64,000 nucleotides of DNA, from assembly GCF_002854065.1 (NCBI RefSeq), contig NZ_CP024147.1; one strand, written 5' to 3'. Shown in pieces: positions 19,401 through 22,400 of this stretch. Made by a program: the position numbers. The stretch is from Escherichia coli. GTDB lineage: Bacteria; Pseudomonadota; Gammaproteobacteria; Enterobacterales; Enterobacteriaceae. Numbering within the stretch: position 1 is the first letter of the stretch; each line of letters opens with the position of its first letter.

Positions 19401-22400
19401 TAAACCGTTTTATCGGGCGGGGTAATACGAGAGTGGACGGTCCTCTCGCCCCCTTGGGGAGAGGGTTAGGGTGAGGGGGCGTTCACCGTGCTTTCAACAG
19501 GTTAACTCCCCCTTTCTGAGAGGAAACAAAATTAACGCAGAATCTTCTTCTCAGCCAAATCCAGCGCAAAGTAGCTGAAAATCAGATCCGCACCCGCACG
19601 CTTAATCGAACCTAAGCTTTCGAGCACGACTTTCTCTTCATCTATAGCACCCGCCAGCGCGGCGAACTTAATCATCGCATACTCACCGCTCACCTGATAC
19701 GCGCCAATCGGCAATTCAGTACGTTCACGCAGCTCACGCACGATGTCGAGGTACGCTCCAGCAGGTTTAACCATCAGGCAGTCTGCGCCCTGGGCTTCAT
19801 CCAGCAGTGACTCACGAATCGCCTCACGACGGTTCATTGGGTTCATCTGATAGCTTTTGCGGTCGCCTTTTAATGCGCTTCCGGCAGCTTCACGGAACGG
19901 ACCATAAAAGGAGGAGGCGAACTTGGTCGAATACGACATAATCGCCGTATCTTTAAAGCCAGCAGCGTCCAGCGCCTGGCGAATCGCCTGTACCTGGCCA
20001 TCCATCGCGGCGGAAGGGGCGATGAAGTCTGCACCTGCAGCAGCTGCAACCACGGCTTGCTTGCCTAAATTTTCCAGAGTCGCGTCGTTGTCGACGCCAT
20101 GCTCGCACAGCACACCGCAGTGACCGTGAGAAGTGTATTCACAGAAGCAGGTGTCTGACATGACAATCATTTCTGGCACTGTCTGCTTGCAGATGCGCGA
20201 CATACGCGCCACCAGTCCATCTTCCCGCCAGGCATCGCTGCCGGTTTCATCGGTATGGTGAGAGATGCCGAAAGTCATCACGGAACGAATACCGGCGTTG
20301 GCGATGCGTTCAATTTCGCGTGCCAGATGTTTCTCTGGAATGCGCATCACGCCAGGCATGGCTTCAACGGCTTTGTAGTCGTCAATTTCTTCTTCAACAA
20401 AGATCGGCAACACCAGGTCGTTAAGGCTAAGTGTTGTCTCTTCAAACATAGCGCGCAGCGCAGGAGATTTGCGCAGGCGACGAGGGCGTTGGATTAAGTC
20501 TGTCATGGTCTGCCTGATGTTTGTGGAATTAAGGTGCACAGTATACCTGAAGCGGGGCAGGAGTGTTTTACGAAAGTTGTCACGATGTTGACAAGAAGAG
20601 AATGAAAGAGAGACCAGGGCATCTTTGTAATAGAAATAGCAATAACTTCATATTCACTGAAAATATTTTTTAATTTTTATTTATAGGTGCTGGTTATTAT
20701 TTTTGCCAATTTGGTTGAACTGTCAAAAATTGAATTACTTAAAGTTCATTGCTTATTGATACATTATTTGTCTGATTTGTTGTTTTGGTATTTTTAGGAT
20801 CTATAATTCAAAATTAATGATTTCATTAACGTGTTGAAATGCAGTGTTTTTGTCAACTTATTCTTTGTGCGTATAGATATTTTTATATATGTCCACAATC
20901 GGACTTAGGGGAAAGAATAATTGAACCATTCCTCTATAACGCCGCATAATCGTCAACGCGAAACATAAGATGTTTTCTATGCATTGATAATTGATGGATC
21001 AACTTATTACGTCCCTGAGGAGGGATGACAAATGCACTCCTGGAAAAAGAAACTTGTAGTATCACAATTAGCATTGGCTTGCACTCTGGCTATCACCTCT
21101 CAGGCTAATGCAGCGACCAACGATATTTCTGGTCAAACTTACAATACTTTCCATCACTACAACGACGCCACCTATGCTGATGACGTTTACTATGATGGTT
21201 ATGTAGGCTGGAACAACTATGCCGCTGATAGCTATTACAACGGCGATATCTACCCGGTCATTAATAACGCTACCGTTAACGGCGTGATTTCTACCTACTA
21301 TCTGGACGACGGTATTTCTACCAATACCAACGCCAATAGTCTGACAATCAAAAACAGCACTATTCACGGTATGATTACCTCTGAGTGCATGACTACTGAT
21401 TGTGCTGATGACCGTGCTACTGGTTATGTTTATGATCGTCTGACACTGAGCGTTGATAATTCAACGATCGATGACAACTACGAGCATTATACTTACAACG
21501 GTACCTATAATAATGCCGCTGACACTCATGTTGTAGATGTTTACGATATGGGTACTGCTATTACACTGGATCAGGAAGTTGATCTGTCCATCACTAATAA
21601 CTCTCATGTAGCAGGTATTACGCTGACTCAGGGTTATGAGTGGGAAGATATTGACGACAACACAGTCAGCACTGGCGTAAACAGCAGCGAAGTGTTTAAT
21701 AACACTATTACTGTTAAAGATTCTACTGTGACCTCTGGTTCATGGACTGATGAAGGTACTACTGGTTGGTTTGGCCATACTGGTAATGCCAGCAACTATA
21801 GCAACACGCTGACTGCAGACGATGTTGCAATTGCCGCAATCGCAAATCCGTATGCTGATAATGCGATGCAGACTACAGTAACTTTAGACAACTCAACACT
21901 GATGGGTGATGTTGTTTTCTCCAGTAATTTCGATGAAAACTTCTTCCCGCAAGGTGCTGACAGCTATCGCGATGCTGATGGTGATGTAGATACCAACGGT
22001 TGGGATGGCACAGACCGTATGGATGTGACTCTGAACAACGGCAGCAAGTGGGTTGGCGCTGCAATGTCTGTTCATATGGTTGATGAAGATGGTGATGGTT
22101 CTTACGACGGATATGCTGTTGGTACTGAAGCAACTGCAACTCTGCTCGATATTGCAGCTAACAGCCTGTGGCCTTCATCAACTGTCGGTGTTGATAACAT
22201 CAATACTCAATATGACGAAAATGGCCATATCGTAGGAAACGAAGTTTACCAGAGCGGTTTGTTTAATGTGACTTTGAACGGTGGTTCAGAGTGGGATACA
22301 ACAAAATCTTCTCTGATTGATACTTTAAGTATTAACAGCGGTTCCCAGGTTAATGTTGCAGACTCTCGTCTGATCTCTGACACTATCTCTCTGACTGGCG

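Follow-up and report, generated by a model that had tools for sequence, protein, structure and literature searches.

An AT-rich core of conserved composition between hemB and the autotransporter gene ehaB of Escherichia coli as a probable platform for H-NS silencing

The divergently transcribed genes hemB and ehaB of Escherichia coli are separated by a long, AT-rich control region. Judged from the base composition, anatomy and conservation established here, together with published accounts of an orthologous gene, H-NS acting through the AT-rich core of this region probably silences ehaB. The region lies in a 64,000-nucleotide stretch of the E. coli contig NZ_CP024147.1; this whole stretch is called the window, and all positions refer to it.

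Results and Discussion

Anatomy and base composition of the hemB-ehaB intergenic region

The hemB gene, which encodes porphobilinogen synthase, was located on the minus strand at 19532-20506 from its ORF and from the RefSeq annotation of the near-identical strain CUWW06. Between it and ehaB on the plus strand are 525 bp (20507-21031), which form a control region common to two divergent genes, one a housekeeping gene and the other encoding an adhesin. Three parts can be distinguished. The hemB-proximal zone (20507-20589, minus strand; 83 bp) has a normal composition, with a G+C content of 0.47, and is presumed from its sequence to be the promoter side of hemB; it contains the conserved hemB leader, a -10-like TATACT (20540-20545, minus strand) and a block, TGTTTTACGAAAGTTGTCAC, that is conserved in the 45-locus comparison described below. 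The AT-rich core (20590-20885; 296 bp), with a G+C content of 0.264, is the proposed platform for H-NS nucleation and silencing. The third part is a deeply conserved ehaB-proximal block of 146 bp that includes a palindrome, a predicted σ70 promoter and a predicted leader.

A reading of this DNA from sequence only had described a long, very AT-rich spacer upstream of yaiT (ehaB), at 20560-21031. The AT-rich stretch was confirmed, but the start at 20560 was not, since it falls 53 bp inside the intergenic region. The G+C content of 20560-21031 is 0.311, compared to 0.513 for the window, and only 0.1% of all 472-bp windows have a value as low or lower. Of the 39 intergenic regions in the window that reach 40 bp (median length 117 bp, median G+C 0.444), the hemB-ehaB spacer was the longest and ranked third lowest in G+C; among the nine divergent intergenic regions it was both the longest and the AT-richest. 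TpA steps occur at a density of 0.084 across 20507-21031 versus 0.046 in the window, and near-consensus -10 hexamers at 1.35 per 100 bp in the core versus 0.59 in the window. AT-rich DNA with many TpA steps and -10-like sequences is of the kind known to be coated by H-NS. As a guide to H-NS-silenced regions we took an A+T content of about 65-75% or higher, sustained over a minimum of 100-200 bp at a promoter or adjoining it. Such an extended tract is present here: the core has 73.6% A+T over its 296 bp, and its 3' edge lies 35 bp upstream of the predicted -35 hexamer of ehaB. The core contains neither a conserved ORF nor a repeat family, and a scan of both strands of 19300-21300 with the Rfam 15 covariance models gave no match at E-values up to 1.

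A-tracts, curvature and the H-NS motif

The same sequence-only reading had held that the A/T tracts are in helical phase, quoting a string that maps to 20666-20707, and this part of it has to be given up. Phasing was assessed from the Fourier power of tract centers and of AA/TT relative to shuffled sequences, from 120-bp sliding windows and from wedge-model curvature. A-tracts (AnTm, 4 or more) number 23, compared to 24.1 +/- 2.7 in dinucleotide shuffles. They have no periodicity near 10.5 bp: the Fourier power of tract centers at 10-11.2 bp was 0.86, below the shuffle mean of 2.26, and 96% of shuffles gave a higher value. None of the sliding 120-bp sub-windows had significant phasing, the best being equalled or beaten by 8% of shuffles. 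Predicted curvature, which had been put forward as a check, was also unremarkable, with a wedge-model mean of 7.8 degrees per turn for the region (92nd percentile) versus 6.6 for the window. The quoted string scored 7.0, and the only peak in the region, 18.2 at 20791, is of a size reached by 66 peaks in the 64 kb. Controls for the wedge model behaved as expected (phased A6, 28.7; out-of-phase, 8.6; random sequence, 6.6). The motif TCGATAAATT, reportedly described by Lang et al. in 2007 as a site of high-affinity H-NS nucleation, was not enriched, with two matches carrying two mismatches each (20756 and 20989) versus 1.4 +/- 1.2 in shuffles. Curvature and phased A-tracts are classical but non-essential traits of H-NS targets.

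Conservation and variation of the core

The comparison of this region covered 45 loci adjacent to hemB, representing at least 15 enterobacterial genera, with one outlier of 1688 bp (L052) excluded. Across these loci the intergenic region is 371-617 bp long with a G+C content of 0.31-0.44, compared to 0.54-0.62 for hemB, and the core is 161-387 bp long (median 280) with a G+C content of 0.21-0.44 (median 0.276). The core sequence is only 38-48% identical and cannot be aligned outside Escherichia. Retention of composition in sequences that cannot be aligned points to constraint on composition rather than on sequence. Composition and approximate length of the putative silencer are maintained across the Enterobacteriaceae, and its sequence is not.

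Within E. coli, the part of the core at 20690-20885 is hypervariable, with at least four deep alleles that share 68-81% identity. For the core, identity between strains is 70-80%, versus 97-100% in the flanks; by way of calibration, it is 98.9% in the ampH-sbmA intergenic region and 87-100% at third codon positions. Both the core and the sequence for the passenger domain of the autotransporter show allelic replacement. This pattern recalls horizontal regulatory switching of intergenic regions, said to have been described by Oren et al. in 2014, in that the intergenic core diverges far more between strains than the flanking genes do. It differs in that the divergence here appears to go together with an exchange of alleles in the neighboring passenger domain, and in that the promoter block stays constant between two variable segments.

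The locus as a whole is not foreign DNA. It was found in 5423 of 5426 E. coli genomes, and the order hemB-autotransporter gene-iprA is kept across the 45 loci; together these exclude recently acquired, xenogeneic DNA. Because the locus is ancient and syntenic, the usual rationale, silencing of foreign DNA, does not apply to it.

The predicted ehaB promoter, palindrome and leader

A σ70 promoter for ehaB is predicted on the plus strand at 20921-20950, with a -35 hexamer TTGAAC (20921-20926), an 18-bp spacer, within the 16-18 bp usual for such promoters, and a -10 hexamer CATAAT (20945-20950), from which we infer a transcription start at about 20956-20958. Searching with the promoter consensus gave four matches versus 2.6 expected, and conservation backs only this one. 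In the 45 loci and in more distant genera its hexamers hardly change, and the spacer keeps its length while its sequence varies, as is characteristic of genuine promoters; by its sequence it is predicted to be moderately good. The promoter sits outside the AT-rich core, in the 146-bp block, whose G+C content of 0.39 makes it only moderately AT-rich, a point that counts against the H-NS explanation.

Upstream of the -35 hexamer is a palindrome, TGTCCACAATCGGACT (20890-20905), with the family consensus GTCCG-N4-CGGAC and a center about 59.5 bp upstream of the predicted start. Allowing at most one mismatch, it is found in this place in 40 of 46 loci and matches only seven other sites in 660 kb. 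It is a candidate operator for a dimeric regulator of the CRP/FNR type, for which a two-fold symmetric site of 14-16 bp at an activator position would be expected. The palindrome occurs once in the window; a second copy, which near iprA would have hinted at autoregulation, was found neither there nor elsewhere in the window.

The predicted 5' leader (20957-21031, plus strand; about 75 nt) contains two predicted hairpins on the same strand, a short one with GGA in its loop (20991-21002; TTGATGGAYCAA) and one that encloses the Shine-Dalgarno sequence (21011-21026; GTCCCTGAGGAGGGAT). Among 31 sequences drawn from many genera, both motifs show little or no variation. Three GGA motifs (20996, 21019 and 21023), in the hairpin loop and over the Shine-Dalgarno sequence, are invariant across genera; a leader under CsrA control would be expected to have at least two, with one in a hairpin loop and another overlapping the Shine-Dalgarno sequence. 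The fold has a z-score of -1.74, and there is essentially no covariation in the leader because its sequence does not vary. Two other candidate sites were rejected. Conserved TTGAT/ATCAA half-sites are spaced by 2 or 9 bp, not by the 4 bp of an FNR site, and lie downstream of the predicted start, and a possible Fur box in the leader matched, by eye, at only 7 of 19 positions.

ehaB, its probable terminator and iprA

The gene named ehaB in RefSeq (21032-23896, plus strand) is called yaiT in K-12 and upaC in urinary strains, and is orthologous to seaB. Pfam and NCBIfam matches identify it as a classical autotransporter gene, with an intact frame of 954 codons. The predicted protein is 97% identical to EhaB of strain Sakai, with one gap of 26 residues that corresponds to an in-frame loss from the beta-barrel; the deletion junction, at 23602/23603, was found in only 3 of 5426 genomes. 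Because of this barrel deletion, the gene in this strain may be silent for a second reason.

A conserved hairpin, AATGCCCGTCAA-GGAT-TTGACGGGCATT (23938-23965, plus strand), lies between ehaB and iprA. Most loci have a hairpin here, compensatory changes occur in its arms, and a run of T residues comes after it in many genera. This hairpin is probably the ehaB terminator; its weak T-run in E. coli causes a simple terminator scan to overlook it.

The iprA gene (yaiV; 23984-24607, plus strand), identified by an NCBIfam equivalog, encodes a regulator with a CRP/FNR fold. Counting only genes about 90 nt after the autotransporter gene, iprA was found 3' to it in 60 of 64 loci, including loci in which adjacency to hemB was undetected. 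The AlphaFold model of IprA (pLDDT 85.9) aligns along its entire length with CRP, Vfr, CLP and NtcA, with TM scores of 0.72-0.76.

Probable H-NS silencing of ehaB

Repression of this locus by H-NS, with de-repression in an hns mutant, is reported for the CFT073 allele in papers that cite earlier work. According to PMC5012682, the UPEC autotransporter genes UpaC, UpaH and UpaG are repressed by H-NS, for which it refers to Allsopp et al. 2012 (Infect Immun 80:321), and PMC3966885 and PMC6956023 give the same citation for H-NS control of autotransporters. In PMC4844996 the same work is cited for UpaC being "controlled by its adjacent transcriptional regulators", possibly a mis-citation. The earlier suggestion that the composition of the region is that of an H-NS-silenced promoter of a surface protein fits these accounts. 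The accompanying suggestion, that yaiT is cryptic and conditionally expressed, agrees with the SeaB paper, in which EhaB and SeaB phenotypes appear on overexpression only and the Salmonella orthologue is induced by anaerobic shock.

In the mechanism that we infer, H-NS, probably together with StpA or Hha, would nucleate on the AT-rich core, at about -70 to -365. It would then spread over the promoter or bridge to the first 1.5 kb of ehaB, which is moderately AT-rich; the G+C content of ehaB, 0.41-0.48, would allow such downstream contacts. The ehaB promoter would thereby be off under laboratory conditions, and expression would need silencing to be relieved by a particular condition or by a specific factor. 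We propose that hemB escapes silencing because its promoter is located within the hemB-proximal zone, where composition is normal.

Comparison with known systems

The closest counterpart is upaC (c0478) of CFT073, which occupies the same position between hemB and iprA. Its intergenic region is likewise 525 bp long with the same three zones, is colinear with that of the window, and is 88% identical to that of the window on the hemB side, 80% in the core and 98% on the promoter and leader side. Signal peptide and translocator differ little or not at all from those of EhaB here; the passenger domain is another allele (62% protein identity overall). The seaB gene of Salmonella enterica (yaiU, STM0373) is a positional orthologue, also between hemB and iprA, with a conserved signal peptide and translocator and a divergent passenger; its regulation is described as anaerobic-shock induction only. 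No Salmonella locus was recovered in the scan, and the likeness is one of gene order, protein domains and phenotype. F9 fimbriae, upaH and upaG/ehaG also have AT-rich upstream regions, are off in laboratory culture and are de-repressed in hns mutants (PMC3966885). Several of those H-NS-silenced loci are strain-specific or island-borne, unlike the hemB-ehaB locus, which is nearly universal in E. coli and syntenic across genera.

Alternative explanations

Several observations count against the H-NS explanation: the nucleation motif is not enriched, curvature and phasing are unremarkable, and the locus is ancient and syntenic. In addition, an unconstrained spacer under the known GC-to-AT mutation bias would likewise turn AT-rich. 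The core might then be a functionless spacer at AT-biased mutational equilibrium, to which H-NS binds incidentally without controlling ehaB. The low identity of the core outside Escherichia, its divergence within E. coli at a rate far above that of its neighbors, and its lack of a conserved ORF, Rfam family or repeat family would all be expected of such a spacer. Bacterial genomes have a deletion bias, however, and despite it a core of 161-387 bp persists in every genus; moreover, the median G+C of the core lies far below the intergenic median of the window, and H-NS is reported to repress the orthologous gene. We consider a functionless spacer improbable. Still less probable, indeed very unlikely, is that the AT-rich DNA, through intrinsic curvature, activates hemB or ehaB in the manner of an UP element and is not a silencer. 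AT-rich upstream DNA can stimulate promoters, and a conserved AAAGAATAA lies directly upstream of the -35 hexamer, but the tracts lack helical phasing, predicted curvature is near background, and over 30 bp separate the core from the -35 hexamer downstream of it, too far for an UP element. A phase-variation switch, either an invertible promoter of the fimS/UpaE type or Dam/OxyR methylation of the agn43 type, is effectively refuted. Phase variation is common among E. coli adhesins and autotransporters, the UpaE switch being described in PMC6083910, and the core differs strongly between strains. Inversion is nevertheless ruled out, as the alleles align in the forward direction only (local scores of 57-105 forward and 11-18 reversed), the inverted repeats are short, imperfect and AT-rich, and there is no adjacent recombinase gene. 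With agn43 (flu) the ehaB region shares the setting of a control region for an E. coli autotransporter adhesin with ON/OFF behavior. Control of agn43 requires a cluster of GATC sites in the OxyR operator, whereas the ehaB region has only two scattered sites (20798 and 20997), one of them conserved, and Dam/OxyR phase variation is rejected because these are too few.

A different possibility, and one compatible with H-NS silencing, is that specific regulators rather than H-NS exert the main control and that the AT-rich core is accessory. Transcription would be governed by a dimer of the CRP/FNR type, possibly IprA, at the palindrome, and translation by a protein recognizing the leader GGA motifs, for example CsrA. 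The constant placement of the palindrome speaks for this, as do its geometry and its position near -59.5, which resemble those of class I CRP/FNR sites. So do the regular presence of iprA after the autotransporter gene, the modeled full-length CRP fold of IprA and the invariance of the leader motifs across genera. The sequence AGGGAUGA over the Shine-Dalgarno sequence resembles ARGGAUGU, the SELEX core for CsrA. On the other side, the palindrome is not repeated near iprA or elsewhere in the window, the leader lacks covariation as an RNA and its z-score is modest, no link between CsrA or IprA and ehaB was found in the papers searched, and the literature credits repression to H-NS. Primary control by specific regulators seems to us doubtful, and silencing by H-NS through the core is the explanation that we prefer.

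Significance

In pathogenic E. coli and Salmonella, EhaB, UpaC and SeaB serve as adhesins in biofilms and in matrix binding; they have been considered as vaccine antigens, and whether and by what the gene is silenced decides its expression during infection. Since the H-NS part is already in the literature, the finding itself adds little. It has as by-products a precise map of a conserved promoter, operator and leader, all predicted, a putative silencer conserved in composition only and not in sequence, and the consistent association of iprA with the adhesin gene. From these sequence features, IprA and CsrA emerge as two regulatory leads.

H-NS silencing and the two leads can be combined in a tentative scheme, rather unlikely in its entirety, of three-tier control across the Enterobacteriaceae. 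In this scheme, H-NS would coat the compositionally conserved core, IprA bound to the palindrome near -59.5 would act on the adhesin gene as its own dedicated activator or anti-silencer, and the leader GGA motifs would place translation under CsrA. If true, it would provide the first direct target for IprA, and would account for the linkage of iprA to the adhesin gene having persisted from a time that precedes the divergence of these genera.

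The ehaB locus and its neighbours

The autotransporter adhesin gene named ehaB by RefSeq (21032-23896, plus strand) is intact in the window. It is flanked by tauD (18574-19425, plus), hemB (19532-20506, minus), iprA/yaiV (23984-24607, plus) and ampH (24608-25765, minus). Its K-12 counterpart, yaiT, is a pseudogene split by IS3, the Sakai counterpart is ECs_0424, and the CFT073 allele, upaC, lies at the identical position. Of 5426 complete E. coli genomes, 5423 have the locus. tauD and hemB are convergent, and between them, at about 19430-19500, there is a G+C-rich element with imperfect palindromic repeats (ctcgcccccttggggagagggttagggtgaggggg...), similar to dispersed intergenic repeats of E. 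coli.

The window differs from E. coli strain CUWW06 (NZ_CP182139.1) by 6 bases up to 39069; beyond that point it has 1387 bases more. The SNP at 16505, one of the six, falls inside tauA (16011-16973), which is intact in the window; the CUWW06 annotation lists its copy as a pseudogene that has an internal stop. The 1387 bp at 39070-40456, absent from the otherwise near-identical CUWW06, yield a 673-codon ORF (39117-41138), and in the same region (38357-41138) an IS1 copy (38357-39054) is inserted beside a DUF2773-type gene.

Composition of the intergenic region

The intergenic region between hemB and ehaB extends from 20507 to 21031 (525 bp). As the sequence-only reading had proposed, the DNA upstream of ehaB is very AT-rich: G+C at 20560-21031 is 0.311, against 0.513 for the window; segments of 472 bp with so low a G+C make up just 0.1% of the total. 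The minimum is a 296-bp core (20590-20885, G+C 0.264), and G+C rises to 0.470 in the flanking zone towards hemB and to 0.390 in the one towards ehaB. The window has 39 annotated intergenic regions that are 40 bp or longer, with medians of 117 bp and G+C 0.444. None is longer than the hemB-ehaB region and only two have a lower G+C; of the nine divergent ones, none is longer or more AT-rich. TpA steps occur at 0.084 per base, compared with 0.046 for the window.

Other AT-rich DNA was seen elsewhere in the window. The intergenic regions flanking iraP (30683-31224) exceed the hemB-ehaB region in AT content (G+C 0.282 over 181 bp and 0.300 over 100 bp). The window's other most AT-rich stretches (57099-57570, G+C 0.311; 57722-58193, 0.343) lie within a 489-codon hypothetical gene between malZ and acpH (56975-58444, G+C 0.357) that matches no Pfam family and may have been horizontally acquired.

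The proposal that the A/T tracts lie in helical phase was not borne out. The Fourier power of tract centres at 10-11.2 bp was below that of 96% of dinucleotide shuffles, no 120-bp sub-window showed significant phasing, and the 23 A-tracts of the region are the number predicted from composition. Predicted curvature was likewise ordinary. In a wedge model the region scored 7.8 degrees per turn and the window 6.6 (controls: phased A6 tracts 28.7, random DNA 6.6). Its sole peak, 18.2, is of a size reached by 66 peaks in the 64 kb, and the string quoted in support of phasing (20666-20707) scored 7.0. The published H-NS consensus TCGATAAATT was not enriched in the region. Thus, the case for H-NS rests on plain AT-richness and TpA content, not on bending.

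Comparative anatomy across genera

Relatives of the translocator domain were used to recover 64 loci, one genome per species. In 46 loci in all, four of them taken from E. coli genome records, the start of hemB faces that of the autotransporter gene. The genera included Escherichia, Citrobacter, Pseudocitrobacter, Enterobacter, Trabulsiella, Lelliottia, Raoultella, Kluyvera, Leclercia, Superficieibacter, Pluralibacter, Yokenella, Intestinirhabdus and others. In all 46 loci but one 1688-bp outlier, the spacer is 371-617 bp long with a G+C of 0.31-0.44, and hemB in these loci has a G+C of 0.54-0.62.

Three zones are already visible in the alignment of the window, Sakai, K-12 and CFT073. Outside Escherichia, the core is 38-48% identical to that of the window, the level found for unrelated AT-rich DNA; despite this loss of sequence, it keeps a median length of 280 bp (161-387) and a median G+C of 0.276. 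Deep conservation across genera, judged by column conservation and the alignment, is found in the 146 bp nearest ehaB. This promoter and leader recur in Buttiauxella and Atlantibacter, where the DNA at -150 to -450 is likewise AT-rich. On the hemB side, a block, TGTTTTACGAAAGTTGTCAC (20564-20583), is also kept across genera; it lies directly upstream of a -10-like TATACT on the minus strand that has no good -35 hexamer, and may be an activator site for hemB.

Promoter, leader and iprA

The conserved 146-bp block contains the promoter hexamers, which places the ehaB promoter just downstream of the AT-rich DNA rather than within it. The sequence AAAGAATAA precedes a -35 hexamer, TTGAAC (20921-20926), and a -10 hexamer, CATAAT (20945-20950), follows after 18 bp; we infer a start site at about 20956-20958. 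The hexamers are conserved and the sequence of the 18-bp spacer is variable, which is the mark of a real promoter. Upstream is a palindrome, TGTCCACAATCGGACT (20890-20905; family consensus GTCCG-N4-CGGAC); 40 of 46 loci have it at this place with no more than one mismatch, and just seven further copies occur in 660 kb. In its two-fold symmetry and its position near -59.5 it resembles the class I sites of CRP/FNR-family regulators. No second copy was found near iprA.

In the leader, the motifs TTGATGGAYCAA (20991-21002) and GTCCCTGAGGAGGGAT (21011-21026) vary little or not at all. Of three GGA motifs, one is in a short hairpin loop and two are at the Shine-Dalgarno hairpin, an arrangement resembling that of CsrA-repressed leaders. 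The fold has a z-score of only -1.74 and shows no covariation across loci because the sequence is invariant. None of the papers in the library searched supports CsrA control of this leader.

In 60 of the 64 enterobacterial loci, iprA begins about 90 nt after the autotransporter gene, and the pairing persists at 33-43% IprA identity and where hemB adjacency is undetected. IprA is predicted to adopt a full-length CRP/FNR fold (pLDDT 85.9), and the model matches CRP, Vfr, CLP and NtcA with TM scores of 0.72-0.76. The pairing and the predicted fold together make IprA a candidate local regulator of the autotransporter gene. The candidate operator, the iprA pairing and the GGA leader are modest, testable leads.

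Between ehaB and iprA there is a perfect hairpin with a 12-bp stem (23938-23965; AATGCCCGTCAA-GGAT-TTGACGGGCATT), kept across genera with compensatory changes in its arms; in many of these genera a T-run comes next. This hairpin probably serves as the ehaB terminator, which a simple scan overlooked. The loop (CAAGGAU) also fits the core motif of CsrA. A CyuR site predicted upstream of yaiV (PMC11408624) falls just before this hairpin.

Allelic variation and a barrel deletion

Within E. coli the core, notably 20690-20885, has at least four deep alleles (window/Sakai, K-12, CFT073 and SCPM-O-B-8794) with 70-80% mutual identity, diverging more than the window does from E. whittamii (87%). For the same strain pairs, identity is 98.6-98.9% in the ampH-sbmA intergenic region, 87-100% at third codon positions of neighbouring genes and 95-99% in the promoter block; taken together, the flanking genes, that intergenic region and the promoter block fall at 95-100%. 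EhaB and UpaC share 62% identity overall; their signal peptides are identical and their translocators nearly so, and divergence restarts directly after the signal peptide. The simplest reading is that old alleles of core and passenger have been swapped by recombination while the promoter, leader and signal peptide between them were held constant. The hypervariability of the core probably reflects old allelic variation that has moved along with the passenger domain. An invertible element is excluded.

Relative to Sakai EhaB, the window protein lacks 26 residues (SISGLFQSGDDYQLSNDMKVDGQSYD) of the beta-barrel. The underlying in-frame 78-bp deletion (junction 23602/23603) is seen relative to both Sakai EhaB and CFT073 UpaC, just 3 of the 5426 complete E. 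coli genomes share this junction, and the Pfam and TIGR barrel models match the window protein in two pieces. This EhaB may not be displayed on the cell surface, regardless of promoter activity. RefSeq still annotates the gene as an intact ehaB.

Proposed H-NS silencing of an ancient gene

The suggestion of an H-NS-silenced promoter is consistent with the cited H-NS repression of upaC, the orthologous allele at the same position in CFT073. UpaC is explicitly named as H-NS-repressed in PMC5012682, which credits Allsopp et al. 2012; PMC3966885 and PMC6956023 also cite that work for H-NS control of UPEC autotransporters. The CFT073 control region is colinear with that of the window (88% identity on the hemB side, 80% in the core, 98% on the promoter side). 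Since the H-NS interpretation agrees with this published work, it is already known. The SeaB paper reports EhaB and SeaB phenotypes only upon overexpression, and induction of seaB, the Salmonella orthologue, by anaerobic shock.

An alternative is that the core has drifted neutrally to an AT-biased mutational equilibrium. Drift would account for the lost conservation of core sequence, but would leave unexplained both the lasting 161-387 bp of spacer and a core G+C much lower than in other intergenic DNA. In the best-supported model, H-NS on the core silences the conserved ehaB promoter. H-NS would nucleate at about -70 to -365 and either occlude the promoter or bridge across it, with the moderately AT-rich 5' part of ehaB (G+C 0.41-0.44) as a possible downstream partner. 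hemB would escape silencing, its promoter being in the zone of normal composition. The textbook target of H-NS is foreign DNA, whereas this locus, present in nearly all E. coli genomes and syntenic over many genera, is ancient and not foreign. A more fitting description of its AT-rich core is that of a silencer or spacer, conserved in composition, that belongs to an ancient gene.
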